Assembly: GCA_937916125.1 (NCBI GenBank)
Contig: CALGGE010000066.1
Coordinates: 27,908 to 91,907, forward strand
Direction of reading: 5' to 3'
Source: an uncultured Elusimicrobia bacterium
Lineage (GTDB): Bacteria; Elusimicrobiota; Endomicrobiia; Endomicrobiales; Endomicrobiaceae
DNA: 64,000 nt
Positions 4,257 through 64,000 of the stretch are shown one piece after another; the first letter of the stretch is position 1; each line of letters opens with the position of its first letter. The position numbers and the translations under genes are program-made. The notes under the pieces were generated by a model that was not told the DNA's origin, did no database searches, and saw only the letters and a list, made by a program, of their open reading frames with translations.

Positions 4257-4295
4257 ATAAATCTCCTTTAGAACTGCTTATAGTGACCGTGAATT

Positions 4296-4932: not shown

Positions 4933-4942
4933 TTAAATCTCC

Positions 4943-6400: not shown

Positions 6401-6414
6401 TTTGCTACCTCGAA

Positions 6415-6742
6415 AAATAAAAAAATTCATCCTAAACAAAAATGTTTTCAAGGACGAATCTGAATATCCGCGGTGCCACCTTGCTTTGAAACAGTTTGAT
6501 AAACAACAAGACGAACTTTTTAAAAATAAAACTGTCTCACACTTTTAAGGAATACCATCATATTCCCGGCAACTTACGCGTGCCCTGCGTTGCAGAATAC
6601 TCAAAGGTTTTACCCCTCTTTGACTGCACCCTCTGCGGTCCATTTCTACAAGCTGCTTACTACCGGCTTCTCACCACCCCGGCTCGCTGTCAGTGCATTT
6701 CTTGTTTTTATCTCCGCATCAACGGTTTGTTGTAACTTCGAG
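6415..6742 (-). promoter_or_regulatory. T-box leader (tRNA-Trp responsive, specifier UGG) with terminator/antiterminator
   Basis: Read on the minus strand. Stem I region: GATGCGGAGA...AGCGAGCCGGGGTGGTGAGAAGCCGG. Specifier context: GAAA-UGG-AC. T-box sequence: AAGGTGGCACCGCG (complement of 6468-6481). Terminator: TTCGTCCTTGAAAACATTTTGTTTAGGATGAA followed by a U run (about 6419-6460). It lies directly upstream of trpE. Confidence 0.75.
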
Positions 6743-16339: not shown

Positions 16340-16373
16340 ATTTTCTTCTCCAATAAAAAAACTTGTATTGTTT

Positions 16374-20500: not shown

Positions 20501-22110
20501 ATCTTTCAACCAATTGCGTTCTTTATAAGGGTATCTTATAATCGTTCCGTCAGATCTCATATAGTTGTGTTTATTCTGTCTGTTTACGGAAAACTTGGAC
20601 GGGAACAATCCGTAAAAAGGAATATCCGTATATAAAAATGTTGCAGATGTCATAATATCCGTAAACAAACTTTGAGACTCTTCCGACATAAAAAATGCGG
20701 AATCCTGTTCATCCAGCAGGGACATATCCAAGCATACATTTCGGTTCAACAATCCGTTACTTTCAAGAAACTCTTTAAAAGCTTTTGCATTTATTTCTTT
20801 ATTGGAAATAAAACTCTTAAATTTTGATATATCAGCATAAAAAACATTATTGCTATTGTAAATAAGTTCCGAACGTTCCTCAATTTTTTCAACATCAGAC
20901 CACTTTGTATATTTACCGTAAAAAACAATAACGGGATAAGTGTTGTCCCGGTTCCAATCTCTTTCAGAAGCCAAGAAAATTTTTCCTTTATTCAGTACGG
21001 ACACAAGTTCGTTTTTTTTCTTATCTGCAGAAGAAAAATCGGTTTTTAGAACTTTATATATTTTAATTATACCGTTTTCTCTTACAACTTCAAAGTCTCC
21101 CTCTGCCTGAATATCAATATCAAGCTCACCGATATCCGTCATATCAATATCTTTAACCGTAACGGATGTTTTATCGGAACAATTTATTTTAAAAATACTG
21201 CCATCAGGTATATAAACATTATTCAATGTTATTGTACCGTGCAGAGAAACTTCGGCATTTTGTTCGATGACGGTATCAACAAATACAACCTTTTCCAAAT
21301 CAGTATCTTTCGTATCGGCACCGTTATTTACCAGACCTTTCTTTTTTACTTCTTTAGTGTAAGCAGCTCCCCCGCCCGGAACGGCACCGACAACAAACAT
21401 CATCGGAAGCATTAAAACCATCTTCGTAAACAGCGACAAATTTCTATGTAAACGTTTTATTCTTCCCGGCTTTTGGGAACCCGTACTATTATCGACAAAT
21501 TCTTCTTCCCGTAAATTTGTTATTTCGTTTCTGTTATTGATTTCCTTTACGGTATTTTTCGACACATAAAACAGACGTTCTTTATTCTCAGACAAGAACG
21601 TCAACAAAAATCCTTTTTCGACAACTTCAATATTTTTCAGAACGGTATCATCGTCTAAACCTTTGGCATTAAAAATATCGGAAATATATTTTTGAACGAC
21701 AGACACATTTTCTTGTACCGTTTCAATATTCTTGTAACGGTTAAAAAGTTCACTGAGCAAATCATAATCCAAAAAGCCGACTGCTATAACCTTTGTAGGA
21801 TCATCCCAACTTTCGTTCATCAAAGAACTTCTTATAAATTTCTGATACGTATTGTTCAATATTGAAAGCTGTCTCATATAATCTTCATAAAATTTACTCT
21901 TACTTTCAATAACATCAACAGATTTTACGTTAGGCATAATAACGGCATAATTGATATCAAGTCCGTCCATAAGTTGTTTCATTCCGCGACTGTGATATCC
22001 TCCGGTTATTATGATATCTACAGGCTGATCCGTAGTTTTTAATATTTCTTCAAAAGACATTCTGTTATTATTTTTTATAACGGCTCTGTTTGCCGATTCT
22101 TCTTTATTTA

Positions 22111-32200: not shown

Positions 32201-32379
32201 ATGACAATGTCCCCGTCATCAAAAATTTTTGACGAAGTTATTTTTCCCAAAGATGAGGGTATGAATTGTTGCATACCGTCAGAGAAACGTGCAGGCACGG
32301 CAAAACCGCCCTTTGGAAACAGTGTAATAACCAAAGAAAACGAAATCATTAAAGAAACTATCTTTTTAATCATTTTCAT
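23287..32379 (-). CDS. giant membrane multidomain protein, paralog P3 (ChaN/TraB-like N-module, 2H phosphoesterase, CPBP intramembrane protease, phosphohistidine swivel domain, PPDK-type ATP-grasp, ILSAA tail)
   Basis: 3,030-aa uninterrupted ORF. Signal peptide: MKMIKKIVSLMISFSLVITLFPKGGFA. N-module motifs: INIQDLHCH (32176-32202) and VVTGGFH (31033-31053). 2H motifs: LHMTVGY (30364-30384) and VHMTIGR (30088-30108). CPBP motifs: EEGIFR (29779-29796), FAYAH and HSIYN (29506-29520). Swivel domain: TTSGGVLSHAAITTREYHTPSVI, with His at 25558-25560. ATP-grasp: FGSKTVELAKI...VRSSGVGEDSANNAFAGMGETVLNV...GLGEGIVSG (about 23700-24690). Confidence 0.85.
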   Translation of the reverse strand: MKMIKKIVSLMISFSLVITLFPKGGFAVPARFSDGMQQFIPSSLGKITSSKIFDDGDIVINIQDLHCHAETQKKIFSILEYLDTKYGLDKVYLEGAFNIVDTSWLSELKDNKFGVKIVENLLNSGNLSGTEYYSTIKNKKNFVAGIENESLYKENIKLLGEIITLSPEIEAVCKNIEKEINSVRKDYASPKARKIQRIISLYDNKKIKTKSFYNELIRLAEDLDVSVEKYKNLSLYISLFDKTDVINNGKISGEFARFVSSLKNKLDYDGYSELFKRSNKFTDFENISYDLIKLNNKFEITKNLKLKNLESFFASLAVSDIINPIELVKEKEDFINELYIKAGRTKYEKEVNFLAEFVPVIRNYFTAEISSDEYYNFEEGYKKFKTTWPSYLPSQPIQSLDTYYDLLSKYHRNNILRDQIFFSAIRQSSDFSTQTPSRKISLVVTGGFHTRGLERIFLDKKVSYVIITPKVTESTEAARQLYTDNVLYYSSILENTINIEPLTQEPLNVSFRKVMEGFFYAVQSEAFQNYSEEDLKREIYQIIAEKIIDKQNTFYGNVEILEWQILSSEVKTGNVEFVVKYRDNANKGTESTINYIYSDGEIKEYANIDIEKTVNMIKRIKANKYAAPSLELEPATSARKKLYRYILKPLSEISGDAVSLMPYKQLHMTVGYDSSGATPQQMDESFLYQNKTHSIFAATQNLGETFPSIKTSLAGTLKLMPDGVLIYTITDTDLIAQMLNLRKDFENLDPNYRVPKIVHMTIGRIFDESLFQDTPQAKEKLAEVIRLLNEKIYEINKAGELAKIKTSFTLKGGYVSSTGDKDFLTTRIYPKSQPLVIAKNFFKNASDVVRLIYTIVVAPVIEEGIFRAAPFILLTTFVFTTPFPIIPAIVTAFTGTIGFAYAHTLNDIITKSSQKRDWKDLLSPATSLTWIYIVLSFIFPQYMLLAPIVTTVLHSIYNIRALTRGRFNDMLSVITGSKDDKNEEEQLSDEFYQTKDIEQMSDVPVVEQSVVDRIIEILSLLDGYDYAEVKKIIKNLSNLPEQKVERYKIVVEQIDAILDLVKENNRHNYQPQYYFRDGDYNDVSTVYGKLKVFCEQNGIDNWGSFYMSDFLLFSLIPFIALEDVYKSNNSFFYHMVDSLFIHKGKLRDKYIVLADVSKFIGETYKINSDFIPYGINKLLSREFISKDEDIPYQIQNNLKDYDALKQYYFAVSDGKEVDKSLSESLSNNVRVFREKALPFTAEQDRERVSEILSNMEELAEKINDGNSILLETLLEELLKIILKQEEQKEDSITYFLPFIFDFTKVKKKTGTRTVKTMLDSLIKILFDSYDVNSDNEKFYGLLDGMMDISGKFYNSEDNDIKDFGTYICNGITERLLLVVYTPIAQNTLDENSLEYVSREKTFYNVFEKLSKKNPKNISVYSYMFANTGVEDPAKRNSWNDDTSTIYGPGLNRKTLQRFVDAVYKANIKNVSIPLPEKDSLISDVEDLAEIVVDNCTLFDLSSFCNDLLGKKENGRVLAISVIKKLLLILENKNIDNKTRRYVISELVNMASTELYISLQNYNLFDINRLNELCEENNLPYFLKPVSDAFVSEMRGQYRFSRLIKYLPKDMFTSGNIILQEPPILYTVSGTTNKQNKEVAIIRDKFNTLQSILNDNNLVLSLLDGLSASKNPEKDFAELVKILSKMIVSLSLINPEHGNYARTALNNILYNLSIRPEQDGELLFTTSLTKDMIKRNMALKQWNSEHIEEITEIHTLINAVHQTSISDFKETVKDIIEIGDKAIKTVVAVHRNPRISIGYSDTGGLDRTGVELYDLSENKLNPDILDFIGRLSQNKLPRQKTAEKHEYQIDDFICMDNLLVWTTRLFAHSVDIFMNFADTDKTITISYHESDKKTGNAERIRYFSTILEKFGFFVENDINRPAGNDAAYSLKATLSTDYGFNKDMDFIDIATKVVSLFSYSVMLDWDLDELSNRYSEDSYRRTFDSLVEKFMEGDIWYGYMPNGVTGWPENKITARPQRNSLDKNWLKQVLQSLDLIDDIPEEFGFRVTQNVLDDMFNNVIERSFAVGRIFLNENGILSRNKDYDVVSYLAEAVSDDEEAAINKSKLINLIPNTNFKFKTIGYIGDLLAVSGYMKLQNGDFLSVKGLTKPSIKRLKYSVVEYVSLSGRKSVTFEELYEILRNEGFDIPRQELLSPSEQDRISNLLHRQTQNLSSPELRAVPISAGNGTYVSGYVTFDKNNVDGNSIFVAPYTTPDDVERIKTAKAIITTSGGVLSHAAITTREYHTPSVIINGASWKDKGLNILCYYSSGNPFQLGNLSIRKVKSKDKILREGSIILLNGETGHILLFDDIEDSTLKLLQSYIEKDDAENIKDFLIKNSVAENIGRIVEYIYFQTIGDTRMAQTLDMLFAQDMPQTIKDKIKELNESYIQDKVKVMNEAVTNLETTANPNIAYSIVRTLLEKLEFIKSPEYRQELDMIRKEVFEISQNTKESLIVFLKVFLKECRTMLEKYEYLPEDLNEIVGMLQLANVNEMFIPETEEDAYLQELKTDTENVINLLKLRLYGTYNYGVYSPKGDILSFDDIYERDSYKFGSKTVELAKIHRLLEKEDNVVVPEGVGISYDVFVRFFDMLGQKQQFLMLSQSFKNAINNGEYQLAQNFAKIIISLIENSKNKIKETDSLRKELEDMVLKTLGDSKYSVRSSGVGEDSANNAFAGMGETVLNVDRGNLFDALLSCWESFYSERSIKYMINSGQIVSPAVLVQTMIDVDKSGVAFSRDKYGNTTIETLYGLGEGIVSGKLTPDTITVNMETGNVLEYSVATKDYKIVSTREGVKLTFVDKGAKERTLNYEEIKQLIKVLLLLEDDVFYAVDVEFGFKDGKLFILQRRPVTTNAVNEEDVSEENVITVQHDTKYEISLSAGNADSQQQAFIHLPNPLNDTQSIPVYLETREQKSARFIIPSEYEELLGFGVLENILVNRINKDRTVLAKLNGGIFNFKSGEIGLLPVTIKEFDTSSFGQSDGYIDNIKNILSAA

Positions 32380-41460: not shown

Positions 41461-42447
41461 ATGATTATTTGGGAAAGATTCAGGAAAAATATTTTTGACA
41501 ACAAACTTGTTTGTCGTGGAGATAAAATTCTTTTGGCTGTCTCCGGCGGAGCAGATTCCATGGTAATGACAAGTTTGTTTTCCATGCTTAAAAAAACAAT
41601 CGGCATTGAGTTGATGATAGTAAACTTCAACCATAATTTAAGAAAAGAGTCCGTTAAAGAAGCAAAAATCGTAAAAAAATTTGCGGATAACCTTAAAATC
41701 GAATGCATATTAAAAAATTTAAACACCAAAGAATATGCAAAAGAAAAAAACATTTCTACGGAAACTGCCGGACGACAATTGAGATATGCCGAACTCGAAA
41801 AAACTGCAAAAGAATACAAATGCAACAAAATCGCCACTGCTCATAATATGAACGACAATGCGGAGACAATACTTATGTGGATGTTGAGAGGAACGGGAAC
41901 GGAAGGCTTAAGCGGAATTCCCGTAATAAGAAAAATTGATAAAAACCTGTCGATAATAAGACCTGTTTTATCCGTATCCAGAGATATGATAGACGCTTAT
42001 GCAAAAGAAAAAAATATAAAATTCTGCACGGATAAAAGCAATTTCAAATGTGATTATACAAGAAACAAAATAAGGCTGAACATCATACCGGCATTAAAGA
42101 AAATAAATCCGTTATTTATCGAACACATTTATAATCTGTCAACAATAGTTAAAGACGAAACCGCATATTTTAAGAAAAAGATAAATTCTTTTATTTCAAA
42201 AAACGTAAAAATAACAAAAGATAAAATATTTGTAAATTTAAATGCATTTAAACTGCAACAAAAAATAATGCAGTTTAAAATATTAAAAGAAATTATTCCT
42301 GACAAAAAAAGAGCCGTCCACATAAGCCAAGTTATCGATTGGCTGGCAGACGGCAAAAGTAAAAGTTATATTTTATCCAAAGATTGGAACATAAAAAAGA
42401 GCAGAAAATATTTTACTTTTTCTAATCTTTTAAAAGCGGCAAAATAA
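41461..42447 (+). CDS. tilS: tRNA(Ile)-lysidine synthase
   Basis: 328 aa. The PP-loop LLAVSGGADSMVM and ATAHNMNDNAETILM are present. The 3' end overlaps the convergent kinase gene by 26 nt. Confidence 0.85.
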   Translation: MIIWERFRKNIFDNKLVCRGDKILLAVSGGADSMVMTSLFSMLKKTIGIELMIVNFNHNLRKESVKEAKIVKKFADNLKIECILKNLNTKEYAKEKNISTETAGRQLRYAELEKTAKEYKCNKIATAHNMNDNAETILMWMLRGTGTEGLSGIPVIRKIDKNLSIIRPVLSVSRDMIDAYAKEKNIKFCTDKSNFKCDYTRNKIRLNIIPALKKINPLFIEHIYNLSTIVKDETAYFKKKINSFISKNVKITKDKIFVNLNAFKLQQKIMQFKILKEIIPDKKRAVHISQVIDWLADGKSKSYILSKDWNIKKSRKYFTFSNLLKAAK

Positions 42448-46985: not shown

Positions 46986-49900
46986 TTACGCCGATGCTGC
47001 AATTGCATGTATGTTCGAAAGCTTCATCAACGCCGTAGGCATACGATCTCTTGCTGCTCCTCTTCCGTCCGCCAACAACGCTCCCAAATCTTTCATAAAG
47101 TCTTCTTTTACATACGATATCTTCTCGGTTACCGCTTTCTGCAGTTTAACTACATCTATCTCAAATGTCTCGTCTTCGTATTCTTTCTTGCCTACAACGC
47201 TGTCTTTTATCGCCGTCGTTACTACATTCTGATTGACTGCCTTGCTTATTACAAGTTTGCTCATTATGTCTTCCGGTCTTGTGCTTGCACTGTCTAACAA
47301 CGCAATCATTCCGTTATCTTTATTCGCCATTATCAACATATCTCTTACTACCGATAATATCTCTATCGATGCCTGTATATCGCTGCCGCTCACATCTTCC
47401 ATCGCTAATATTTCGCCCGCTCTCTGCGTGTATGCTTGTACTATATCCTGAACATTCCCATTCTTTACTTCCTCTATATTATTGAACCCTATCGCCTGTG
47501 CCATCTCGTTTGAGGTCCCGTATATCGCAAGAACCGCTGCTACCGTATCTTTTATCTCCTGAGGTTTGGTTACTCCGTTTACTACCGTACTCAATATCTC
47601 TCTTACAGCCTTATTCGATTTACCTTTTACTTCTTTCCTGTCTGTTCCCAATGCTTCACAAACTGCATTTATTGAAGATGTTATAGGTGCTAATCCTTTG
47701 TTCCTTGCTGATGTTTCAGGTACCATCACTATCCCCTCAAATCCCATCGCTTTAAATTCTTCCGGTGTTACGGATACCGTCCTGATATCAAATGTTCCGG
47801 ATTCTTTATCAAGTTCGCTGTATGATATCGCGTCTTTACTTATACTTTCTATATTTACAACGTGGTCCGTTCCAAGCAATCCTATCATTCCTTTCTTCGG
47901 AACTTTTACTTCCGTTATCTCTTCCGCATATACGGCTTTGGCTCTCGGCATTACGCTACCGAGTTCCTGTAACAAATCTCCTATCGTTACATCTATTACG
48001 GAACTTGTTCCCGCTACTTTCAGCTCTTCTATTGCCGTCGTGTAATCACTACCAGCAATATCTGTTACGGAAGAATCTATTCTTGCCGCAATAAAGTCTG
48101 CTATAGCATCGGTATTAAAGCCCATCGACGCCATTACAACTACCGCACAGTTGGATACTGCCGCCTCTATCGTTTCATTGTCTATACTGCCTTTTACTCT
48201 ATCGCTGACTTTTGTCGCTATCTCCGTATACGGATTTACTGTCTCGGAAACTTCTGCCTTCTCCGCTTCCTGCCGTGCAGGCTGAACCGCCGGCTGTTTC
48301 TTGCCTATCGCAAAACCTTTCGTTTCTACTTTTCTCGTCTCTCTGTTGAACGTTAATCCAAACGTTATATCGTTACCGTCGGATGCCTTGGTAAGTGCCG
48401 CTTCTACCTGTTTATTCGCTTCCTCAAAGTTCGTTACAAGTTTCTGCAATTGTCCTTGTGCAGCAAACATTTCTCTGAATTTTATCCTGTCGCCAAACGT
48501 TATCTTTTCGCCTTTATTCGATTTCGCTACCAAATCATTATATGCCGCTTTCTTCTCTTCGCTCATTCCATCATATATCGCAGATATCTTGCCTTCCTGT
48601 TTGGAATAGTTATCGTTTATGTCTCTTACCGCTTTTATCAATTTATTTACGCTTACTTTAGGACTCTGTTCCTGTATCAGTTCAAGCCCTGCAAGAACGT
48701 CTCCGCTAAACACTCTCTGCACTCTTTCGTCACTTGTATCCGTTACCGCACCTGCTTTAAATTCATTACATGCTGCAACATATTTCATATAACTGTCATA
48801 CGCAAACCATGTATCTCTTGCCATCTGTTTCGTTTCGTCAGTCGCACTGTCTCTGTTTATCTCAAGTATCTTATTCATTACTCTGTCCGTCGCTTCTTCT
48901 CCTATCATTGTAGCCATCAATCCTCTCGCTTCCGCGTAAGTAGGTGCTATTATCTCCATCGCTCTCTGTTTCTGCGACCAGACTTTCTTTTCATTTACTA
49001 CCGCATTATTTGCTTTCTGTAATGTCGCCTCTTCATTGGATTCCATTACATCATTCAAATTGCTCAATATCATTCCAACACTGTATCCGTCATTCTTCTT
49101 TGCTGCTTCTCTTAATATCTTGTTCTCTCTTACCGAATCTACCGATGTTATCTGTACTATATCTCTGTTGAAGAATTCCGAACTGAATCTTGATTTTCCA
49201 TCTCTGTGGGCAAATCTTCCATTTCCCTGCTCTGACTGCGTTGCATCCATCTTCTCAAAGTTTACTTTCCACATCGTCGCCTGTACTTTCGCTTCCCCTT
49301 CTATACCCTGTTTCGCTTTCAAGTTGTTTACTGCTCCGCCCATATCGCCCGGGTTCCATCCTCTTCCAAGCAAGCTCACATCTCCTACTATAAACGATAC
49401 TTCTCCCTTCTTCATTACATTCTTTAATACTTCCTGCAACACTTTCGTCTTCGTATCTATATCTATTTCCCCGAGTTTATCTACACTGTAATCGGATACC
49501 CCGTTTGCTGCCATAACTTCCGCTACCTGTGCATACTGATATCTCTTTCTATCCGAAAGTTTCGTCAACTCTCTGTCAAGTAAGTCTAACGACAAACTTA
49601 CTATGTCTTCGGATGATATTCCGTTCTTCTCCAATCCCTCTACCAACTGTGTCGTTACATCAAAGTTGGCCGTCATTATCAAATCTACTCCCGCAGTCCC
49701 CTGTCTGTTCAACTTCTGTCTGGATGTCGCTATTACTTCCGCTATATCTCCCTGTGTCTGTGTTAATGCCGTCGTTACTCCTACCTTCATACTGTCGGGC
49801 ATACTACCGCCTATCTCCTCATAATCCAAATCTTTTAACATTGTCCTTATTGATGCACTGAATGTCCCTGAGAAGCCTACCGACCAATCAAATGCCGCTA

Positions 49901-52900
49901 ACGCTTCTTTCGATGATATAAATGTCTCCAACGACGGTTTATTGATATTCTCACATCCTTCCATTAACTCTATAGTCCACATCCCCGGCATATTCAAATT
50001 CTTCATCGCTACTCCGTTATTGGTTATATATACCACCTTATCCTTTCCTTCGCCCTCAACTACATATGCCCCGGTCCCTACCGTCTCTTTCGCATTATAC
50101 AACGTCAACGCATCCATTCCGGTTACCAAGAACTCTCTTACTTCCGTCTTGGAATTGAATATGTCTCCGTATTGCTCATATATATCGTCTATTAATGTAT
50201 TTAGTGCCTTATCATACTGTTCCTGCGTTATTACGGGGGTCGCTATTTCTTCCTGCGCGTCTGCATCCTCTCCCGCATGTTTCGCTTTTACTTCTTTTAC
50301 AGACTCCCTTACATTACGTATCATATTGTCTCTGTAGCCTTCCTGCTCGTCTTCTGCCGCAACCGTCGTTATTATCGCTTCGTCTCCCTCTGATTCATTT
50401 ATCTTCCTTGTCCCCTTATCTCCTTCGCTAAATCTTGACATGTCTGCAATATCTATTTCTACATTATCTACCATAGCCGTCAGTTTGGTTCCCTCGCCCG
50501 TTAACCCTAACAGTCTCTGTCTTACTTCCAAGTTCCTTATTGATAAATACTGTTCTGTTACTATATCTTTTATCTGATGCTCGCTTAACCCTAATACCGC
50601 CATCGCCGCTTTTACCGTATCTCCCGAAAGAACCGTCGCCTGTATCGACTCGATATCTTTATTTTCTTCTGCTTCTTTGTATGCATCCGCTACCGCTGCA
50701 GATATCGCTCCATATGCTTCTCTTCTCTGCTCTATCTGCTGTCTGCCGCCCTTCTTGCCGAGTGCCTCTCTATCACCTTTGTATCTGTCTTCCGTTACTC
50801 CTAAATATGCATAGTCGGTTACCTCTATATTTGCTCCACTGAGCAATTTATCATAGTAGTCTACCATTCCATACTCTTTCGTATATTTCCCTGCTGCACT
50901 TGCTAATGCCGATGCCGGTATCGTTGCCGCATAGTCTAATTCGTCTCCTACCAATTGTGATATCCTGTCTATCGGCAAGTTTATTCTATCCAATCCTTGC
51001 CCTTTCTCTACCAACAATTTTATCGCCGCCGCACTGTCTTTGGCATCATTAAATTGTACTTTTACGGTCTTGGTCTTACCGTTACTTAATGTAGTTTGAT
51101 TAAGTTTTATTCCTGCTCCATCTAACAACTTCCTGTTATGTTCTACCTGATCTTTTATTTCCTGATTGGTCTCTTCCGCTCCGTATGATAACAAGCCTGC
51201 CATTGATTCCGAAAACAAACTTCCCCAACTGCTATACGTTCCGATTATTACTCCTGCACTGTCTAACTTTTCTCTCATCCCTTCTTTGTCTTCCGTGTTC
51301 GTTATCATCTCTACTTTCCCTAACGAATCTCCGAATACAAATTTAATATGATTATACAAATCTTCCGCATTTGAGTTCTCGTTCGTTAACCATGTTATAA
51401 ATTTGTTCTCCTTATTCTCTATGTTCGGATTTGCACTTAACAACAATACACTGAATAATCCGATTATCGATTTACCGCCTGCCGTCTGCAACTCTTGTGC
51501 GTATCCCGCCGATTTCTCTTTCCCCTCTCCGTCATTTTCTACCGTGGCTCGCAAAATGTCTCTGAACGCTTCTTTCTGCCCGTCTCTAAATCCTGACAAT
51601 GCAAGTACAGAGTATGGTACCTCTATATCCAAATTATATTTCTCCCTTATACCTTTTAATATCTCTCCTTCTTCATCTGTTATATCACCGTTAACAACAT
51701 CTATCAGTGTCTTATAATCTTCCTTCGCTTCTTCTTTGCCGCTTGCTACCATCACTCCCTCTACTGAACTCCTCATGTTGTCTCCAAGTATTGTCGCTAT
51801 CTCTTTGGCCGCTAAATTATATTTCAAATACTCCGCCATCTCTTTATCACTCATATTATCAATTTTCGCTAACTGTGCATCGGTTAAGAAGTATTCTGCC
51901 TCTACCGCATCCACTCTGCCGGATCTCTTATATTCTTTATTCTCCGCTCTTGCCGCAGCATATCCCGACAGATATTCTTCTACTACCGCTCTAATATCTT
52001 CTATCTTGTCTTCGCTAACATCATATTTCCCTGTTCTCAAATCGGAAATTATATCTTCAACACTTGCGGTAGGATTATCAATTTTCTCATCAACGCTCGT
52101 TCTTGTCGGCGTTGTCGATTTAGTAAGCATTGCATTAACTGCATCTGTTGCTTTATTGAGCCTATTTACTTGTTTTGGTATAGATTTATTAACTTTTCTT
52201 TGTTTTAATGCAGACACTAAATCCATTCCCGCGGCTATTAAATTACCTGCCGTACTTAATTGGATATCATCATCCTTTTTATTGACATTATCTTTATTCT
52301 CACTTAATTTATTTTGAAGAGCTACTATACCTGCCTTAGCTATATCTGCGACTACATTTACTGTCATAACTGCAAGAGCTTGTGGCAATGAAGTTTGAAC
52401 TTTCCAACTCGGAGCAGAACTGCCACCGGTATTAGCACCATAAGCAGCACCTACCAAACCAACTATAGGAGCTCTTAATAACATATACCCTGTAGTACCC
52501 TTCATAAAACTACCGAAATCTGATAATTTTTCTATCCCCTTTGCATGTGCTGCCGCAAATTGTTTTTCTTTTATTGAAAGTATTTCTTTTGCAGATAATG
52601 GTGTTGCATACAACTGTTCGCTCACAATAGTTTGCAGTTTATTAAATTCATTATATTGTTGGGCCAAACTCTCTGCCAAATCAACATTAATATTCGGCAT
52701 TGATGCTTGTATATTCTGAGCATTTACCTTACCTGTACTATCAACACCAAAAGTTTCAATCATTTTCATTATTACTGCATTAGGAACGGATGCACCAAGT
52801 TTTTCCATTGCAGAAACAACATTTTCATCATGGCGAGCATGCAAAATTTGTAATATTGTTTCCTTTCCGATTCCTGAAACATTTATTCCAAAAGAAGAAC

Positions 52901-55900
52901 TATAAGTATTGAAATCTATCAAATTATCCAATGAAACATTGTTGTTTAACAACCACTGTGCTATTTCGAATTTATCACCCGATGTCGCTCTATAAGTATC
53001 GGAAGCAGACCTACTTGAAGAAGTTTCCGTTACTATCGCAGGAGACAAATCCAAACCTAAAGTATCCCTAAGTAATAAATTTAATGCTTCGGCTAAATCA
53101 TCATCATCGTTGAGTTTGAGATAATAAGAAACCGACTGTTTAGCACTATTGGTTAAAACTCCACCTTCCAACAACATTCCATTATCTTGTAATCTTTGTT
53201 CTATATTTGAAATATCTTGACTACTTACACCATGTTCTGCTAATACAGCACCAAGTTCTGCCGTTGTCTTAGGCATATCCTTAAATTCTGTATCCATGCC
53301 ATAAGTTGCCATAACTCTATCACTATAACCAAACATTATCTCTGCTGCAGTCTGTAAACTATCAGCCGTAGTAATGAATCCTTCAGAAGAGCCTTGAGTT
53401 TGAGAAATACCATTCCATTGTTCATACAAAGCTTGAGCTTTTGCCCCTATTGCACTATCTGTTCCGAGTGTTGTTGCTATTCTTCTAAACGCATCTTTTG
53501 CCGTAGTTTCCAAGTTTCCTAATGCATCTCTCAACTGTTGCTCACCGCTAATAAGGTCTGTATTTGTACCTTCGATATTTAACCTTGAAGTTTGTTCCGC
53601 ATTCAATATATCCGATAATACATTATAAACAACTTGTCCTTCTTCCGTATTCATACCTGCTTCAACTATAAGGTTATTCAACTCTGCAGTTAAGAATTTA
53701 TCTTTTATGGTATCGACAAGTCCGAATACTAAAGATTGAGAAGCTTGATTATACAACATATATAATTTTGCCAATTGGAAATCACGAACATCAGCAGATA
53801 GTTTATCACTAATACTTCCGTCTGAATTAAATAAATTATTTAACAATCTTTGATCTTCCTGAGAAGGACTGGATTTTAATTGTTCATATATTCCTTTTGT
53901 GATAACTTCATTACCACTAATTTTTTCCATATAAGCAGATACTTCTGTCTGATTACCAAATACCGTTCTTGTGGCGGTTTCTCCGCTGTGTCTTGTGACT
54001 CTACCATAAACTTGAGTCAACAATGATGCCGACATCTGAGAACTGTCAACAAGTAAATCAAAATTACCTACATAATCAAGACCCATACCGGCTTTTTCAT
54101 TGCCGATTATTATCTTAGCATTTGCACCACTATCCTTTTCTCTGTTTATAATGTCATCTGTCTTTTCCGTATCGGTTTCTATATTTAATATTCTATAACG
54201 ATAATCCGTTCCATGCTCCGAGTCATATTTCGCTAATGCATCCCTTACCTGTTCTCTAACAGCAACATCCACAGAAATAATTACTTGGTTTCTTGCATTT
54301 TCACTATTTAAATTATTTATTATTCTATTAACTATATTATCAATTATTTGCTGTCTGTTTTCCGTCTGAACAAATAATACCTGATCGCCGGTAGCATTTT
54401 CCGTTACAACTTCAAAACGCTTTTCATCTCCATATTGTGCTATCTCCATACCAAATGAAGCAGCCATATCCTGGACATGAGATAACGTTCCCGACATACC
54501 GATATACTGTCCGTTACCAAAGAATAATCTGCTACCTGATGTTCCAAAATCAGTTTCACTTACTGAAACATTTTCTAAGGCTGCCTCATGATAATTTGTA
54601 TCTAAAACTTTTTCTACACTAAGATGTTGGTCTCTATTAAATATACCTTGTACTTCATTTGTCATTCTCGATGCAGCATATGCATAGGCCGCATCCTGGA
54701 ACACTCTTCCATTCTCCTTATTACCATTTGCAACAGGAACTATTTGATACGAGCCGTCTGCTTGTAATGCTAAAGCATAAGTATCTTTACCGTTTTGTTT
54801 TTCAAGTATTGCTTTAACACAAGAATCTATCCAAGTTCTGTTTATATTATTATCCCTAGCAAAAGCATCTAATTGTTCACTTAATTCGGTTGAAATACTT
54901 CCTTCTCCGGTATCTTGTGAAACTTTTATATCTCCGTTTCTTACAAGTTCTGCTGCTTTTGCATATGCAGTTAACAATCCGTCTGTCTGTTCTTTAGTCC
55001 ACTTATCCGTTATGTTATTTGCACCGTTGCTCAGTATAAACGATGTCTGGCTTTCCATAAACTTATGAACTTCATCTGCTATCGTTAATCTGTCAGTCTG
55101 AGCCTGGAAATCAGTTAAAATATTTTGTAATCTTGAATTACCTTGTGCAGCCTGCGAAGCAGCCGTTGTCCCCAAGAATCCCATCTGTTCGCCGGTCCAA
55201 ATTCTTAAACCGTCTTTATCATTCATGGCAGCTTCAAATTCTTCTACATTTACTCCCTGTTGTGCATTCTGTGCAAGTCTGTCCATATCATAAATATTAA
55301 CTTTTCCGCCGTTCTGATTGGCAAGTTGTATAAAGTCGCTTACGGATATTTCGTTCGCCTGTCCCGGATTCAAAGTTCCATTTAAATATTTCTGATATTC
55401 TTGAGCATTGGCAACAATTAAGTCCATATTTGTTTCGCCTCTTAAGCTTCTTGACAAAGCTACACCTGATGCTATTAAAGTTTTACCGAAACCGACACCG
55501 GCAAGCATTGCGATATTATTGCCTGTCATAGCATCGGTTATTGCTTGTTTTTGACCGGGTTTAAAGCCTAAAGATTGCGATCCGTCATCAGACATATAAA
55601 CTTTATTATCTTTTAATAATTGTTCTGCTTTATCAACAGAAGCTGCGGCATCAAATATATTTATCATTTCTTGTGTCAAATTAACATTCTGTAAATATTC
55701 ATAGGCACCAACAAAAACACTATCATTAAAGAAAGAACTTATTTCTCCAAAGTTGTTAAAGTTGTATTCTAAAACTCTATTCGTAACAAAACTTAAACCA
55801 TCATTTCCTGATACACTTTGAACAGCTGCTCGAACATCTCCTACAACTTTACTTGCAAGAGACACTCTCATATCAGCAGATTTAACTTTACCAAACAAAT

Positions 55901-58900
55901 CATTGATTTGAGCAGCTTTTGCTTGCTGTCTCGCAGCTTCCTGCTCAGCTTGAACTTCAGCAGTTGCTCCGGTATCCACTTTTCCATAACTATTGCTATC
56001 AAAGATATCATTTACATTTAATTTTGCCGTTTCTTGTGCTATCAATTCTGTCATAAATTTATCATCTTTATAAGTTTCCATTTGTGCATCAAGATAAAGC
56101 AATTTATCTTTTGTAGTTTCTTGATTGGTTAATTCATTTGTAATGTTGTTCATTTTCTGTGTGTTGGCAAGAACAACAGTCCCAAGTTCATGATACAAAG
56201 TCTCTGCTGCACCGGTCAAATTAACACCATTCTGAGACAAGACTTTCAAATTCAAGAATGTCGCAGATACATCACTATAACTTGAATTATTAATAGCCGA
56301 TGCAATATTTCCATTATTTGCAGAAATTACATTATTAATTCTATTAATAATATTCTGCGAAACATCGCCACCTTGTTTCGTTAATGTGTCCAAAGCCGCT
56401 AAGCTTGTAGCATTTGCAATAGAACCTAAACTTGCATTGTCGGCATTAGCCGTAAAATCGTTGAAATTAATTCTATTAATTACTTCACTAACGGTCGATG
56501 CAGTGAAAGGAATATTATTAGAAGCAACCTTATTATTTAAAATATTTCTGTTAACTATATTGTTCATACTTACTAATGCATTCCATGCATTTACGTCGCC
56601 ATTATTTATAGCTTGTGCCATGTTTGCAACACTAAATTTGCCATTGGCATCAGAGTATTGTCCTATCGTTGATAACAGTTGTACTTTTGCCGGAGTATTT
56701 AAGGAGACAGTATCACCGACAAAACGAGTCTTGAAGACATCCCATGTACTTAAATTTTGTTGTTGTGATAAACCATTATAAGCCGTAGCCGCACCATATA
56801 TCTGTTGAATACTCTTTACAAAATCTGCTGTTTGTGTATTTGCAGAAAAACCGGAACCCATCGCACCAATATATGCTAACATAATATTTTGAATATTCCC
56901 TGCATCAAAATTCATACCTGCTGTATTTGCGGAAAATGTTGCCATATTATTATTTAGCAATGTACTGAAAGACGTGGTATTTGTCATAGAGTAAACTTGA
57001 GCTATCGCACCAAGTGATGTCATAAAGTTTTGTAAAGATGATGTATCTGTTATATTGTCAGCAGAAAAAACAACATTTCCATTTTGAACAACATTGAACT
57101 TACCTGCATCAAATTGTACTTCCACACCATTAATGCCATTCATTGAAAGCATTCTGTTCATAGCATTCGTTGCAATTGAATTATTATTCTGAGAGTAACT
57201 TGTATTACTTACTGTCGTTGCATATGTTGTATTTGTATATACATTACCTACTCCGTCAGGAGACATAAACTCTACTAAAGATTCTGCAGCAGCATCACTT
57301 ACGCCTAATGGTTTTAGTATAAAACTCTTTATGGCACCTTCCTTAAACCATTCTTCAAAAGCACCTTCTCCTACTCTGCTTAGAGCTTTATAAATTCCGC
57401 TATTTTTGAATGACTCTAATACACTGTTTTTTGTAAAATTGGAAAGATTTTCTCCTAATTTTATAGTTCCTTCACCAAACGGAGTAGCACTAAAATTATC
57501 TTTTATGCTTGACAATTTTTTACCAAGTACAGAGCTTCCAAATCTTTCTCCTGCTCCGGAGAATAAACCTTTAACACCTTCAGCTAAACCTTCTGCCGTA
57601 GGCATACCTAAATACATTATCAAACCAAATCCTAAACTCTGTCCGGGATTAACAGCTAATAAATTTCCTTGTTTCCCGGTCTGTTGTATTTCGTTAAAAG
57701 CTCCTCCTAAGAAATTCGTTATTATATTTGAACCGAATGTGTTATATATCCATTTGTTTGCACCGTCACCAAGGAAATTGCCGGTAACAGAAGCTATTGC
57801 ATTCATACCGATATTTAATTCAAACATGGAATACATGTGGGCTGTCAGAGACTGTAATGTGGAACCCCATTGTGTTAAACCAAGTCCTCCTCCAAAAACC
57901 AAACTTTGTGCATGTCTTAAAGAACCTAATAAACCCGATTCTCCTTCGATTATTCCATTTTTCAAATAACCGGAATTCCCGATAAAACTGTTTCCTAAAT
58001 TTTCAAATTTATCAGACCAACTTAATGTTTCTGCAGTCGTTTTAACAGCCTTAGTCGCACTAACCTCTACAGCTTTTTCTATTGCATTTGTGGATAATCC
58101 GAAATTATCTAATGCAGAGTTTATATTATTAAGACCTTTTCCTTCCGCTGTTTTTAAGGCTTCTTGTAATTTATCAGATACTCCGTTCATACTCTTTGCA
58201 GCTAATGCTGCTTTTCTGACTGACGTCATTTCATCAAATACTTTTATTGCTGTTCTGGCAGAACTGAAACCTGTCGCCCCGGACTGCAATGCAAAAGACG
58301 TTGCCTTTGCTGCACTACCTATCTGCATCGGGAAGGCAATAGCAAGTCCGGTTGCTGCTAAATTCAACAAACCGCTAGGGACATCACCATTGCTAAAAGC
58401 ATAACTTGCATTCATTGCACCCTGACTTGCAAAGTATGCTGTTCCTAAAGCAGAGAGTGTCAATGAAATAGGATGTGATAGAGCCGTTGCCGCTGCCGTT
58501 CCTAAAACTGCACCTATACCGGCACTTGTTCCGCCCAAAGCAGGAACAAATGCTGCGGCACCCATACCACCGGTGGCAACAGTTACAGCTATTGCGGCAA
58601 TACCTGCCACACCAGCCCAACCGGCAGCTGTTCTATCTTGTTGTGTTATATTTACTACGTTTTTACTTGTTAACATTGTTGATGCTAATGTTAATGCTGC
58701 ATTGTCTGCTCCCCAACCATGCCATATACCTTCTACAGCTCCACCTATTGCCACAAATGTTCCGCCAATAGAATCCAACGTCCCGGCTATAAAATTCTTA
58801 TTTATGGTTAAATTAGATGCCTTAACATCTGTAGTTCCTTGCCAGAAACCAAAATCTAATTCATTATAATCACTACCATACCAAGTAGTTCCATTTTTAA

Positions 58901-61900
58901 ATTTTCCACCGGCAAAATCTTGTTCACCGAAAGCTACAGCACCATTATATTTTACGGTGCCTGCACTAACACTCGGAGCAGTATATTTTACAGGTGCACT
59001 CCCGTCAAAGCTATAAGTCATGGAAATTGTATTATTGTTAGAATCTGTTAAAGTTCTGGTAACACTTACTTTACCATCTCCGGTTAAAGGATGAACTGTA
59101 GTACTAAACCAATCTTCCGTTTCCTGCATTCTTTGAAGAACTAATGATCCTAAGCTTGCAACAGAAGTGTCGCTTTCACAGAAAACTTTTACACTACCGT
59201 CAACATTAACATCATAGCTAATTCCTATATTTTGATAAACTCTATTGTTGGACAATTCCTGAACACCTTGTGTATTGAAATGAGAATCGTACAAAGAAAC
59301 TTCAGTACCACCCAAGAATTGAGAGAATGAAGTTCCCAAAGTTTCTGCATTTATACTGACTTCAAACGTAGTAGTATTTGAATTGGTATTAAACTTACTT
59401 ATAGTTATATTTTCACTATCAATGGTAGCATTAAGTTCGTATTTAACGTTATTGGTACTTTTTTTACTCTCTTCCGGAGGATTTTTATCGGTTTTTGCGT
59501 TATAGCCCATTGTTATGTTATCACCAAAATTTTTCAATGTTAAATCTGCAATCAAACTTACTCCATCTGAAGATAAGCTCAAATCTTTTAACGCAAATGT
59601 CGATGATATATCTCTGCCGTTAGCATCTTTTGCTCCAAGATTTCTGGTAAATCCAATATCTTCCAATGATAAATTTCTCGTATCTTTTCTATCATCTTCC
59701 GGGAAAAATATTGCATATCTATTATGATTATTTCTTGCTTCCACAAACTGTTCATAGGTCATTAAATTATTTGCATTAAGGTATCTATCAAGATCTTCAT
59801 CCGTAACATATCCTTGTCCATTTTTTCCATTAGAATCTGAAACATACTCTCTTGTATTAGAGTCCCATCCTGTCAGTCCAAAGAGAAATTCAATTCTTTG
59901 ATTATCTATTAAGTACTGTTTAACATTTTCTTCCGTTACTTCGTAATCAAAACCTTCAGCATTGTTGGCAGCCACGCTTGTCCCGTTATCAACCATAGCA
60001 AGGTCTCCTAAATATCTGCGGTAAGCCTGTTCATCACTTAAACCATCATAAGCAGATAATAGAGGTGTGTCAAATCTCTCTCCACCCATTTGTTCATGTA
60101 TCAATGCATTGTATTCATCGTTGGTCATAGTATAACTAACTTTAACATCTGAAGGATCTATTTCTTTACCATTAGCATTAAGTAAGCCATCTAAAACAAC
60201 TCCACCTTCTTCAGTATAAGAGATTCTTGCTCTATCGTATACTTGTCCGGCATATTCATATTTATCGCAACCCCAAATAAGACTTCCTTCCATATGTAAA
60301 GTACCATCTTCTTCCCCGTATGAAATTTTCAATCCTGTAGATTTTTCATCTGTAGTTGCTCCTTCAAAAAGATAATGAGAGTCTAATACTAAATCACCCG
60401 AACTATATTTCTTAACACCGGAATTTCTATCATCAATATTAATATAATATGCATCATATATAGTTTTACCTGTAGCACTATCAGTCTCACCGGTATCTTT
60501 AAAGAAAGAATATACATGCTCACCATTCAATGTTGATTTCGTCCATAATTTTGTTACAAGTTTTGCATTATCAGCACCTGCAGTTTGAGTAATCTTACCA
60601 TTGGCACCAACTGTTGTTACAGAATAACCTTTTAAATAAACTTGTCCATCGATAACATTTCCATTATCATCTTTTTCAGGATCGACGAAGAAATCGGTTA
60701 TACATGTCGTTGTGTAACTTCCTTCCATAGTCTGCTTGAATTCACCATCTTTAAAAGATATTATTATCTTGGTATCTTTATTATAAACAGTCTCTAATAT
60801 TCCACCCAAACCATCTGTTGTTCTTTCCTTTGTCCCTGCCGTAACTGTCTTATAATATCCAAAAGTTTCTCCGTATTCCTGAAAATCTCCGTTCTTATCA
60901 AGTATTACAGTACTATTGTTAAGATATTTGTATCCATTAGGAATATATCCGTCCAACACATCACCCGAGTATATTCTTGTAGTTAGTCCCGTTTCCTCAT
61001 CCGTTACATCTTTCCAACTGCTATTAAATTTATAATTATTATATGAACCGTTTATAGTCGTTTTACCATTAACTATATCTATTGTTTCCGTATAACTTCC
61101 TATATCATATTTGTTACCTTGAACATCTATATCCGTACCGTAACTTACTGTTCTTGTATATCCAAAAACATCTCCGTACCCAACAAATTCTCCTGAACTA
61201 TTAAACTTTACACTACTACCTTCAAGATATTGATACCCCGTAGGTACATAATTTTCATCCAAGGCATCACCGGAGTACGTTCTTATTGTTTCACCGGTCT
61301 CATTATTCTTTACATCTGTCCAACTACTATTAAATCTACTGCCATTATTCATTCCTGTAACTTTTGTAGTTATACTTGAAGGTTCGATATCCGCGTCGCC
61401 ATCATAATTATATTTTGTCGTTTCCGTATGATAATTATTCTCATCTATTGTTGTCGTTCTTGTCGTATCTATCACTCTCTGCTTATTCGTGTCATATCTC
61501 ATCTCATAACTCTCGTTACTGCCAAGTACGTCTTTACTTTCTACCTTACCGTCTTGTCCGAAATTTATTATGCTGTTCAATGTCCCGTCTTCACCTTGGT
61601 CGCTTCCTTCATATGTCCTGGTCAATACTCCGTCTTTGGTTACATCCGTATATTTACTGAATAAACCAGAATATTCTCCGGTTCCGGTTATTGTCGTAAT
61701 TTCTAAGCCGTTAGTTTTATAATCTGTATGTTCCGTATAAGTTGTGTTGGTATTTGCATCTATTGTAGTGACTTTATCTGTGTATATTAATTCTTGATTA
61801 CTATTGTAAGTTTCGCTGTAACCTGTTAAATCCCTCACTGTTCCATCTTCAGATTTATATTGCAATCCATCACTATAGGATAAAGTTCTATTTCCTTCAC

Positions 61901-64000
61901 TATCGATTGTAGTTATTATTTCGCCTGAAGTTTCCCAAGTATTTCCTTGCTCATCGGTTCCTTCTGATACCACCACTTTATATGATAAATTATCAATACC
62001 TTCTTGTACAAACTCACCATTTGCATCTCTTGTAAATCTTGCATCACCTGATAAGTACTCTATACCATCAGACTCTATTCCTGTTAAATCAAGAGAGAAT
62101 GATCCATCTTCATTCTGTACAAAATCATATCCGTCTATTGTCAAAGTCTTTGTCAAAGTATCTACTTTATACTCGTGGCCATCTATAGTACCACTTTCCC
62201 CTAATATACTATTCATCAAATCTATTGACAAATCGGTAAGTCCGTTCATACTATCAAATAACATTGACAAAGCAGGACTATCAACTACAGCATCTAACAT
62301 TCTTGAAATATCCGTAACATTGGGAGTATTAGCATCTATATTAGGAACTACAACTTCTTGCAAGGCAATAAGTCCGGAAGATGTCATTTGATAACTGTGA
62401 TCATCCATATGTTGTTCCAATAAGTATGAACCTTTGGCATATGTACTTCCTTCAGCGTAAACGGATGTTGCAGATACACCTGAAGACAATGATTTTGAAC
62501 TTACATTCTCAAATGTTCCTGAAACCGTTAATGTATCTCCGTTATCATATACAAAACCATCAAATGTAGAAGTTGATACTTTTGTTTGCTGTTCCTGTTG
62601 ATCCTGCTGTTGTCCTTCTTCCTCAGATGTCTGCTCACTTTCAATAGGATTTTCCATGTCATTTATAACAGCATCTTTAACCGTCAAATTACCCGACAAT
62701 ATAGCATCCGTAATTTTTCCCGTATCATCAATATTAAAGGTTATTACAGAACCGGCATTCCAGCTTGCATTATTACTGCTTGCTTTAATCTCTTGTCCTG
62801 CATCAGTAATATAGTTAACAGATAGACTTTGTGCAAGTATTGCATTATCATCCTTATTCCCGCTAAGTTTTAAACCTTTCGCAACGGTTGTTACATTACC
62901 GTCACCGTCAACCATATCAAAATTATTTTTCGTCTGAACATATACTGCATTTTCTGCATTAGCACTGTTGTAATTGTATAATCCGCTCCAGAAACCTACA
63001 ACATCTCCCTTATTGAAAGAAGTTTTTAATGAATCTAAATTATTTGTAAATTCAAAATTGTCTTTATCCAATATTTCAATATTGGCATTGTTAATAGTAG
63101 CCGTTGCCCTAAAACCAAGGACACCGTTTTCATCCGTCCCTAATTCCAAAACCGTACCTTTAGCAACATTAACTCTGCCGACACCATCCGCAGATGTTAC
63201 GGACCCGTTTTCTGTAGCCGTATATTTAATATTTCCGTTAACGGAAGTGTATCCTATCAAAGCATCATCCAAGTTACCTACAGTTCCGGACATAGATATC
63301 CCTGTAAATACAAGATCAGCTGAAGTGTTTCTCGTAAAACCTTTCAACTGTGTCTGTTCCATATTCTTCAATATACTATTCAAAGTGTTATTTGTATCAT
63401 CACCGTAATATTCATATGCCGATGTTGCATCAGTTATGGTCCATGCACCATTTTGGAATGTAAGGCTACCATCTGAAACGGTAAAATGTATATCTCCTTT
63501 TTCCGTTCTTATGGTATAGTTGGAACCTTTAGTTAATTTACTGTTTTCAGACGCAATTGCACCAAGCAGTGAAGATGACGTTAACGAAGAAGATGTTGCA
63601 TTACGGAATATACCGTCAATATTAACTTTACTATAGTTATCATTATTATCATCTACACTTCCTTCAAAACTCATCCGTGTTTCAGAAGCCGGGCTTCCGT
63701 CTGTCGGATTTCCATTTATTGCAATTGTTTCATTTTGTACAGTTCCGGCGAATTTAAAAGATCCCGATATTTCGGCAGCTATAATTCCGCCCGAATCATC
63801 TTTATAGAAATCTATTGTACTTGCTCCTGCAAGCCAATTTGCAGTATAACTATCATCAACTCCGCTTATATGTGCAGAAATTTCATTAGTTGCTATTACT
63901 TTATTCCCTTCAGCATCACCAACAAGTTTTAAAGCACCTGCAGATATTGTTGTGCCGTCAGTTACTTTTATATCGGATTTATTTGTTACACATAAACCGT
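46986..64000 (-). CDS. giant multidomain membrane protein (more than 5,670 aa; N-terminus outside the window) with beta-rich repeats, Gly/Ala-rich hydrophobic segments, two SecA-like ATPase modules and an AIAASA tail
   Basis: The track ORF 46986-63674 starts at an internal ATG. I translated 63675-64000 in the same frame and found no stop (..[34 protein letters not shown]...ETRMSFEG). Motif coordinates are given in the findings. Confidence 0.85.
   Translation of the reverse strand, partial: [5670 protein letters not shown]

Follow-up and report, generated by a model that had tools for sequence, protein, structure and literature searches.

A giant gene of rumen or gut Endomicrobiaceae encodes a predicted membrane-anchored protein with a highly divergent SecA-like ATPase module

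The window analyzed here is a 64,000-nucleotide stretch of contig CALGGE010000066.1 from an uncultured Elusimicrobia bacterium, and its last 17 kb are occupied, on the minus strand, by one giant open reading frame (ORF). A frame scan detected zero stops in minus-strand frame 2 over 5,670 codons, from 63998 to the stop codon at 46986–46988, in agreement with the original prediction of a frame open from the window edge and exceeding 5,670 amino acids (aa). The remaining two minus-strand frames stop 4 and 6 codons in from the edge, and plus-strand ORFs listed across the same region measure at most 193 aa. As 5,670 stop-free codons were found at a G+C content of 34.5% (64-kb window), the ORF is not a chance event, and this reading was dropped on length. 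The first ATG of the frame lies at 63674. Since the frame continues past the window edge, the true N-terminus is located beyond it; at the homologous locus L003, more than 900 residues precede the part aligning with window aa 158 (blastp). The ORF is free of tandem DNA repeats. Its parts, including two ATPase-like regions termed module 1 and module 2, are listed in Table 1, with residues counted from the first codon inside the window.

Table 1 Predicted parts of the giant ORF and their positions in the window
Feature	Position	Strand	Residues	Basis
Giant ORF	46986..64000	-		5,670 codons in window, N-terminus beyond; frame scan, translation, homologous giant ORFs elsewhere
Presumed ectodomain, T/G/S/D/N-rich	58749..63998	-	1–1750	Composition; homology with L001 and with two L003 ORFs (ORF0, ORF2)
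About three Gly/Ala-rich hydrophobic helices, predicted membrane anchor	58320..58631	-	1790–1893	Kyte-Doolittle
Gly/Ala-rich amphipathic segments, then N/S/A-rich linker	55659..58319	-	1894–2780	blastp, phmmer, composition
Module 1, SecA-like superfamily 2 ATPase (640 aa)	53739..55658	-	2781–3420	Motifs in 12 homologues, AlphaFold model, Foldseek
Module 1 Q-motif	55527..55568	-
Module 1 motif I	55476..55517	-
Module 1 motif Ib	55170..55199	-
Module 1 motif II	55023..55082	-
Insertion between motifs II and III (187 aa, DEVH to GMSGT)	54507..55022	-		Position of the SecA preprotein-crosslinking domain
Module 1 motif III	54477..54506	-
Module 1 motif V	54072..54113	-
Module 1 motif VI	53979..54017	-
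Conserved region after module 1	52482..53738	-	3421–3839	phmmer
Second hydrophobic pair of segments	52314..52481	-	3840–3895	Kyte-Doolittle peak 1.72 at aa 3875–3893
Module 2, lineage-specific, ordered ATPase-like motifs	48969..51611	-	4130–5010
Module 2 GFRDGQKEAF	51552..51593	-
Module 2 QTAGGKS	51468..51488	-
Module 2 GTYSSWGSLF	51213..51242	-
Module 2 DELD	50925..50951	-
Module 2 GFSGT	49857..49880	-
Module 2 GRGWNPGD	49344..49376	-
Module 2 QGNGRFAHRDG	49185..49229	-
Candidate papain-like (C39/CHAP-type) peptidase	47679..48191	-	5270–5440	Cys5284 (SNCAVVVMASMGF), His5379 (GTDHVVNIESI)
Conserved C-terminal domain, tail ...NIHAIAASA	46989..47804	-	5399–5670	blastp to L001 and L002; phmmer

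Relatives with the same layout were found in several independent rumen Endomicrobiaceae assemblies. A scan of one genome per species identified three loci with homologues (L001, L002, and L003), all in metagenome-assembled genomes of rumen Elusimicrobiota, and the named genus among homologous loci, Candidatus Praeruminimicrobium, belongs to the Endomicrobiaceae. The homologous frames of L001 and L002 both reach contig ends and comprise at least 4,575 and 4,422 aa, respectively, and a complete ORF of 5,548 aa (P0001) is present at locus L010 of another metagenome. In blastp comparisons, L001 aligns to window aa 1352–1893, 2007–3887, and 5399–5670, and L002 to aa 2021–3897 and 5379–5670. Such proteins are rare and easily overlooked: a word-indexed protein search with module 1 retrieved no relative, whereas exhaustive searching of 1.84 billion cluster representatives with HMMER yielded just 13, one of them at 55% identity. 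The index evidently misses such giants, and negatives from indexed searches are untrustworthy for proteins of this size. Non-fragmentary relatives of module 1 range from 1,750 to 5,548 aa in length. Upstream of P0001, an ORF at L010 14–931 is Lys/Glu-rich, with a sequence (VSEIGTEEEAVKNFVDG) resembling the N-terminal repeats of P0001 (VSDIGTEEGSSKKFIDG); it may be part of the P0001 gene or a paralogous leader.

In some relatives the gene is interrupted. L003 contains three consecutive ORFs aligning to window aa 158–750, 1068–1800, and 2785–3897 (blastp), L011 comprises two ORFs whose frames abut exactly at window-equivalent aa ~4055 with one frame change, and L012 is split at another site than L011. 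These breaks, the lack of module 2 in L001, P0001, and P0002, and a possible papain-like peptidase that could process the protein would suit a 17-kb frame created by fusion or mis-assembly of two or three genes (ectodomain, anchor, and module 1; module 2 and C-terminus), or a product cut into separate proteins. We regard this as rather improbable, given that the window frame is unbroken, that P0001, L001, and L002 are single ORFs of more than 4,400 aa, and that a conserved C-terminal domain follows the variable middle part in all homologues. With break points at different sites and a single frame preserved in several assemblies, the splits are read, from sequence comparison, as frameshifts or assembly errors and not as ancestral gene structure; the exactly abutting frames of L011 fit a frameshift or such an error better than a gene boundary. 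The giant ORF is a genuine chromosomal gene of rumen or gut Endomicrobiaceae (Elusimicrobiota), encoding a protein of at least 5,670 aa.

The N-terminal 1,750 residues are rich in small and polar residues (T 11, G 10, S 9, D 9, and N 8%), as had been noted for the first ~1,650 residues (T/S/N/D/G/Y-rich). They contain a few diverged internal repeats, for instance aa 877–955 versus 979–1056 with a score of 212 versus a shuffled maximum of 58, and known domains were not found by searches of Pfam, PHROG, and NCBIfam. Between aa 1750 and 2150 the composition is dominated by A (16%), G (14%), and L (10%), with hydrophobic peaks at aa 1800–1832 and 1873–1891, which bears out the Gly/Ala-rich hydrophobic segments originally placed at about 58,650–57,480. 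The predicted anchor displays Kyte-Doolittle peaks of 1.91, 1.55, and 1.41, includes 52 residues without charged or amide residues, and is kept as a helix cluster in P0002 and P0005 (phmmer). Judged from hydrophobicity, an odd number of helices here would put the ATPase across the membrane from the N-terminal part. The following amphipathic and linker region is kept among close homologues (L001, aa 2007–3887; L002, aa 2021–3196; phmmer matches to P0002, P0003, and P0005). Downstream of module 1, aa 3421–3839 match P0008, P0002, P0001, and P0003 with phmmer E-values of 6e-61 to 1e-33, and weakly P0006, P0007, and P0009; at the second hydrophobic pair, around aa 3887–3897, the blastp alignments of L001, L002, and L003 come to their end.

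Module 1 carries the signatures of a superfamily 2 (SF2) ATPase. Across 12 sequences, down to 19% identity, the Q-motif, motif I (VGxGKT), and a RIWTxExxG[FH]L block are conserved, as are motif II (ADE[VG][HD]), a strand T..Y[IV].S.G, motif III ([GL]MSG[ST]L), motif V (G.G.DY.GN.DL.), and motif VI (Q..GR..R). Intact residues include the Walker lysine, the DE pair, and the arginines of motif VI, and an AlphaFold model of the module shows two alpha/beta lobes. Module 1 is hence best described as a functional-looking SF2 ATPase with two RecA-like lobes and predicted activity. All motif coordinates originally assigned to modules 1 and 2 agree with ours to within a few bases, and the long insertion noticed at the position of the SecA preprotein-crosslinking domain was likewise recovered. 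It includes a predicted beta-hairpin at aa 3074–3100 (model strands E294–298, E304–310, and E318–320). The equivalent gap between motifs II and III of E. coli SecA measures ~180 residues. Pfam SecA_PP_bind matches 2 of the 12 members below threshold, with the best match in P0003 (E 1.7e-3, 19.4 bits versus a cut-off of 23.5); in P0003, the only homologue inspected for position, the match directly follows motif II.

Structural comparison gave the clearest indication of kinship. A single-sequence AlphaFold model of module 1 was unusable (pLDDT 39), and a model built with an 11-homologue alignment reached pLDDT 69.8 and pTM 0.52. Searching the PDB with this model by Foldseek placed SecA or SecA2 entries at all of ranks 1–18 (E 2e-13 to 5e-10), originating from five genera (Bacillus, Mycobacterium, Clostridioides, Thermotoga, and Escherichia). 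DinG followed at E 1.4e-9, then MrfA, XPD, RecQ, and others. On the basis of the modelled fold, we conclude that module 1 is an SF2 ATPase with SecA as its nearest structural relative.

Taken as a whole, the gene probably encodes a membrane-anchored giant protein with a SecA-like module, serving as a tethered motor that aids export of its own or a partner chain. The protein would belong to a recently described class of very large membrane proteins carrying their own SecA-like domain. Its N-terminal region (at least 1,750 aa, beta-rich, with repeats) probably lies outside the cell and would be followed by about three Gly/Ala-rich transmembrane helices and a cytoplasmic region with the highly divergent SecA-like ATPase; a second hydrophobic pair, a lineage-specific ATPase-like module, and a C-terminal domain with a possible papain-type peptidase would complete the chain. 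Powered by ATP, the tethered motor would assist in moving a polypeptide through the cytoplasmic membrane, either the very long extracellular part of its own protein or a partner chain, and the exported part might then form a surface or adhesion structure. We infer that the ATPase is cytoplasmic and that it acts on polypeptide, not nucleic acid, and on its own chain.

Several observations weigh against this interpretation. Pfam SecA_DEAD matched neither the window protein nor any of the 11 homologues (E ≤ 1–10). As single sequences, neither module 1 nor module 2 is significantly similar to E. coli SecA (BLASTP E 0.99 or worse), and Smith-Waterman comparison with SecA gave p = 0.10–0.30 over 2,000 shuffles. 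In hhalign, the 12-sequence profile aligns colinearly with residues 99–396 of E. coli SecA, from motif I through the crosslinking domain to GMTGTA (E 4.8e-4, 278 columns), crossing the motif II–III insertion with low confidence; yet, over short motif stretches, this profile gives RecQ an E-value of 2.8e-4 and RecG one of 1.2e-3. Since RecQ and RecG score alike, this alignment does not discriminate SecA, and it was discarded as SecA-specific evidence. The structural model is of moderate confidence and was built from 11 sequences. TM-scores to SecA are just 0.41–0.47, and DinG/XPD-type helicases come within about four orders of E-value; modest TM-scores are expected because the protein is multi-domain with mobile lobes, but the margin is still not overwhelming. 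In a different Foldseek library, of viral proteins, DinG-like and other SF2 helicases reach 1e-11. Moreover, the complete homologue P0001 has no evident N-terminal signal peptide, the topology is a prediction, and genes for Sec, the type I secretion system, or the type II secretion system (T2SS) were not found beside the giant gene in the window, L001, L002, L010, or L011. The original designation of module 1 as SecA-type is accordingly kept for the fold (the Foldseek ranking), and neither Pfam SecA_DEAD, nor pairwise similarity, nor a profile score equal to that of RecQ upholds it; in Pfam, weak DEAD and ResIII matches and the sub-threshold SecA_PP_bind matches are what was obtained. By the curated sequence criterion, module 1 is not a member of the SecA family.

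The same data bear on an alternative in which module 1, possibly together with module 2, is a conventional SF2 helicase or translocase acting on nucleic acid rather than a protein-translocation motor, set within a large multidomain conflict protein, either a conjugative-element polyvalent protein or a defence protein. The sole Pfam, PHROG, and PDB-sequence signals are indeed generic. Pfam DEAD matches motif I of module 1 below threshold (E 5.7e-5, 23.4 bits versus a cut-off of 26) and, equally sub-threshold, DEAD matches 8 of the 12 members, ResIII 5 of 12, and Cas3-like_C is also seen; PHROG_16 ("DNA helicase") matches the second lobe at E 4e-7. PDB phmmer and small-profile sequence searches with module 1 returned nothing, and a profile search of PDB sequences listed generic SF2 helicases, including a type I restriction R subunit (E 3e-4), with SecA not among them. 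Pfam SecA_SW gave no match in segments covering aa 2701–3600, nor did NCBIfam or PADLOC yield SecA or any other match on module 1. DinG, XPD, and MrfA follow closely behind SecA in Foldseek, viral DinG-like helicases score as given above, and one distant homologue, P0006, is encoded near CRISPR I-C genes and a relaxase/TrbC/VirB3/VirB4 cluster. Nevertheless, we consider this alternative unlikely. The protein is predicted to be embedded in the membrane, library scans did not find nuclease, methylase, or DNA-binding domains, PADLOC assigned no defence family to the ATPase modules, and there was no phage match. The flanks are housekeeping genes that differ between genomes, the top structural matches are consistently SecA, and the insertion occupies the SecA position with its sub-threshold SecA_PP_bind match.

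Module 2 displays ordered ATPase-like motifs, and its GFRDGQKEAF closely mirrors GFKPGQKQAI of module 1. The Pfam DEAD match is weak (E 0.008), phmmer and small-profile searches of the PDB gave no match, and hhalign against SecA and nine other E. coli ATPases returned nothing significant; comparison with the module 1 profile (hhalign E 0.03–0.05) was not significant either. The ordered motifs behind its identification as a second SecA-type motor are present, and that identification is not backed by any SecA, helicase, or PDB match or by significant relationship to module 1. The only homologues of module 2 are P0014, P0015, and P0016 at 64–72% identity, the same three being recovered by a profile search, and they are downstream pieces of the split giant genes of L011 and L012. 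Module 2 is not present in L001, L002, P0001, or P0002. The region of aa ~3900–5400 is variable in general, comprising ~1,500 aa with module 2 in the window; L001 has 350 aa there, and L002 has 1,265 residues of unrelated sequence.

L011 and L012 carry a different first module, here called 1' (L011 6601–8850; L012 ~4090–6360), with motifs MIGTGEGKT / ILGTGAGKT, ILADEVDMVVY...SPYGG, and GFTGTY / GLTGTY that are by eye more SecA-like. Module 1' compares with E. coli SecA at BLASTP E 0.014 over 233 residues and has no detectable homology to module 1 of the window. Its resemblance to module 2 (E 0.012 across 122 columns up to the GF[ST]GT motif) is not significant and, at the sequence level, suggestive only. 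A tandem of a SecA-like module and module 2 recurs in three genomes. Because the closest module-2-bearing relatives carry a first module not detectably homologous to module 1, modules appear to have been exchanged between giant genes. An N-terminal bulk outside the cell without a signal peptide would imply unusual export, which makes the idea of a motor acting in cis attractive and is not evidence for it. A fully self-exporting machine, in which a SecA-like motor tethered in cis beside the internal transmembrane anchor would translocate over 1,750 N-terminal residues that lack a signal peptide, and module 2 would be a second, independently acquired tandem motor, is in our view doubtful.

The C-terminal domain is shared with homologues, matching P0008 (phmmer E 7e-40), P0002 (E 5e-16), and P0001 (E 1e-15). 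A tail ...HA[IV]AA[SA]A or a near-identical sequence terminates nearly all homologues read to their C-terminus (...HAIAASA, ...HAVAASA, ...KAVAAAA, ...RAVAASA), and the tail of P0008 reads ...KAVSQAA. The tail (window 46989–47015, minus strand) might serve as a signal for sorting, processing, or secretion. The Cys and His motifs of the candidate peptidase recur in homologue sequences, in which Pfam matches remained sub-threshold (Peptidase_C39 E 0.048 in one homologue, CHAP E 0.2).

The giant gene is directly followed downstream by MscL and then by histidine kinases and a response regulator, a PP-loop enzyme, PhoH, a PHP protein, and an aminotransferase; farther along the window are BirA, L21, Obg, and a radical-SAM enzyme, and a trp operon occupies 424–6451. 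The window shows the downstream side of the giant gene, the upstream side falling outside, and its flanks are ordinary chromosome with housekeeping genes, including two-component systems. A tblastn comparison against phage gave no match. A polyvalent protein of a phage or conjugative element was dropped as a candidate, because the context is chromosomal and the domains expected of such a protein (methylase, nuclease, ArdC-type) were not found; there was no phage match. In two of five relatives, a gene for apolipoprotein N-acyltransferase (Lnt) lies directly 3' of the giant gene (L002 13351–14898, L011 14224–15762), where the window has MscL. The distant homologue P0006 (L013) is located between type I-C CRISPR genes (Csd1, Cas7) and the relaxase/TrbC/VirB3/VirB4 cluster (L013 340–2954, 18538–20893) and is the sole homologue with a mobile-element flavour.

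Two further distant homologues, P0007 (L015) and P0009 (L016), lie directly downstream of TadE-family genes, and the P0009 locus also contains a Tad-family gene, RcpC, a secretin, T2SSE, and T2SSF genes. Downstream of both lies a further very large ORF (5,934 and 3,109 aa, respectively), which in either case leaves the locus. L015 12643–22225 and L016 22131–30119 may represent a conserved locus of Tad genes and two giant genes. The TadE-adjacent positions of P0007 and P0009 strengthen the link to the described SecA-bearing giant proteins. Proximity to Tad-type loci, the tail shared by nearly all homologues read to the C-terminus, and a candidate peptidase of the C39 type, which is associated with type I secretion, could also be accommodated if the protein were a giant adhesin whose conserved C-terminal domain and tail are recognised by a separate export system (type I, Tad, or T2SS-like), with ATPase modules that regulate or remodel and take no part in translocation. 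This is very unlikely in our estimation: no transporter genes adjoin the giant gene in the window, L010, L011, L001, or L002, the mid-protein transmembrane cluster misfits a fully secreted type I substrate, and the C39 signal is sub-threshold.

Other large genes share the window. A 3,030-aa ORF (23287–32379, minus strand) ends in a PPDK_N ATP-grasp domain (E 3e-51) and a PEP-utilizers mobile domain (E 3e-12), and also contains a weak Rce1-like CAAX-protease membrane domain at ~aa 850–960 and ~2,200 residues without a known domain; this PPDK_N/PEP-utilizers/CAAX-type combination is an unusual fusion. ORFs of 2,134 and 1,493 aa (9977–16381 and 17579–22060, both minus strand) gave no Pfam match at E ≤ 0.01. 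Four very large genes (2,134, 1,493, 3,030, and >5,670 aa) are thus found on one strand inside 54 kb. A PP-loop (TilS-like) gene at 41461–42447 is the sole clear plus-strand gene, the rest being transcribed from the minus strand, and the plus strand of the window is strongly T-rich (23,128 T versus 18,786 A).

The original prediction knew of no described system of this kind. That claim of novelty is wrong, as giant transmembrane proteins with SecA domains were published in 2023 (West-Roberts et al. 2023, bioRxiv 10.1101/2023.11.21.568195), and a 2026 preprint describes a 20-protein PF07517 architecture cluster among long Omnitrophota proteins (10.64898/2026.06.07.730766). Full-length giant genes of Omnitrophota encode numerous transmembrane regions, and their products combine divergent SecA DEAD and preprotein-binding domains, without scaffold or wing, with transmembrane anchors ahead of the SecA-related domains (West-Roberts et al. 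2023). In that protein set, C39 peptidases occur and T2SS-like genes are often nearby; similar SecA-bearing giants are present in Actinobacteria, and very large genes also in Elusimicrobiota (West-Roberts et al. 2023). A self-contained export machine, as put forward in the original prediction, is a hypothesis that these authors had already raised: they propose that the SecA-like domains help to export the giant protein itself, and they set cut-offs of ≥10,000 aa for "large" and ≥30,000 aa for "giant", with a class of 5–10 kaa (thousand aa) also tabulated (West-Roberts et al. 2023).

By published description, the window protein resembles the Omnitrophota giants (Archaeovorin and Dockerin types) in its very long ORF, mostly without recognisable domains, and in the order of presumed extracellular bulk, transmembrane anchor (aa 1790–1893), and fast-evolving SecA-like ATPase (aa 2781–3420). 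A possible C39-type peptidase, distant homologues beside Tad/T2SS-type loci, and proposed self-export are further common features, and the host phylum of the window was grouped with the PVC phyla in West-Roberts et al. 2023. It differs in size, with at least 5.7 kaa falling below both cut-offs (the complete P0001 has 5,548 aa), and in its origin from gut Endomicrobiaceae. Whereas the Omnitrophota SecA domains are Pfam-detected, the module described here escapes Pfam SecA_DEAD and is SecA-like by fold; in addition, glycosyl hydrolase, dockerin, or other enzyme domains were not detected, and a second ATPase-like module is present. Omnitrophota giant proteins are not represented among the 13 relatives obtained by the exhaustive module 1 search.

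With SecA and SecA2, module 1 shares two RecA-like lobes with SF2 motifs, the ~190-aa insertion between motifs II and III, the best Foldseek PDB matches, and a similar motif flavour (GMSGT versus GMTGT; DEVH..T..I.S.G versus DEVD..TPLIISG). Unlike SecA, a soluble protein of ~900 aa that docks on SecYEG, module 1 sits inside a much longer ORF (at least 5,670 aa), downstream of hydrophobic segments, and it lacks Pfam SecA_DEAD or SecA_SW matches and significant sequence similarity. DinG/XPD and MrfA, SF2 proteins with first-RecA-domain insertions, as well as DEAD/ResIII proteins, have motifs I–VI in common with module 1 (Foldseek E 1e-9 to 1e-7); they rank below all PDB SecA entries, however, Fe-S cysteines and nucleic-acid accessory domains were not seen in module 1, and its context is that of a membrane protein. 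Collectively, the window protein is best read as a compact, very divergent Elusimicrobiota variant of a kind of protein that has been described but not characterised, and it may have a second motor.

How proteins of thousands to tens of thousands of residues are made and exported is an open question, and SecA-like domains in giant proteins have so far been known by annotation alone, from uncultured Omnitrophota. The family described here provides a much smaller version (~5.5–6 kaa), rare and found in gut Endomicrobiaceae. Pfam-based surveys would miss such modules because they are too divergent for standard profiles. As module 1 is compact (640 aa) and its Walker motifs are intact, the idea of a motor in cis can be tested by biochemistry and heterologous expression. 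If module 2 is an ATPase, the swapping of motors (module 1 or 1' together with module 2) would constitute a new evolutionary pattern, and if the self-exporting machine with two tandem motors is real, fusion and exchange of translocation motors within giant surface proteins would have happened repeatedly in bacteria.

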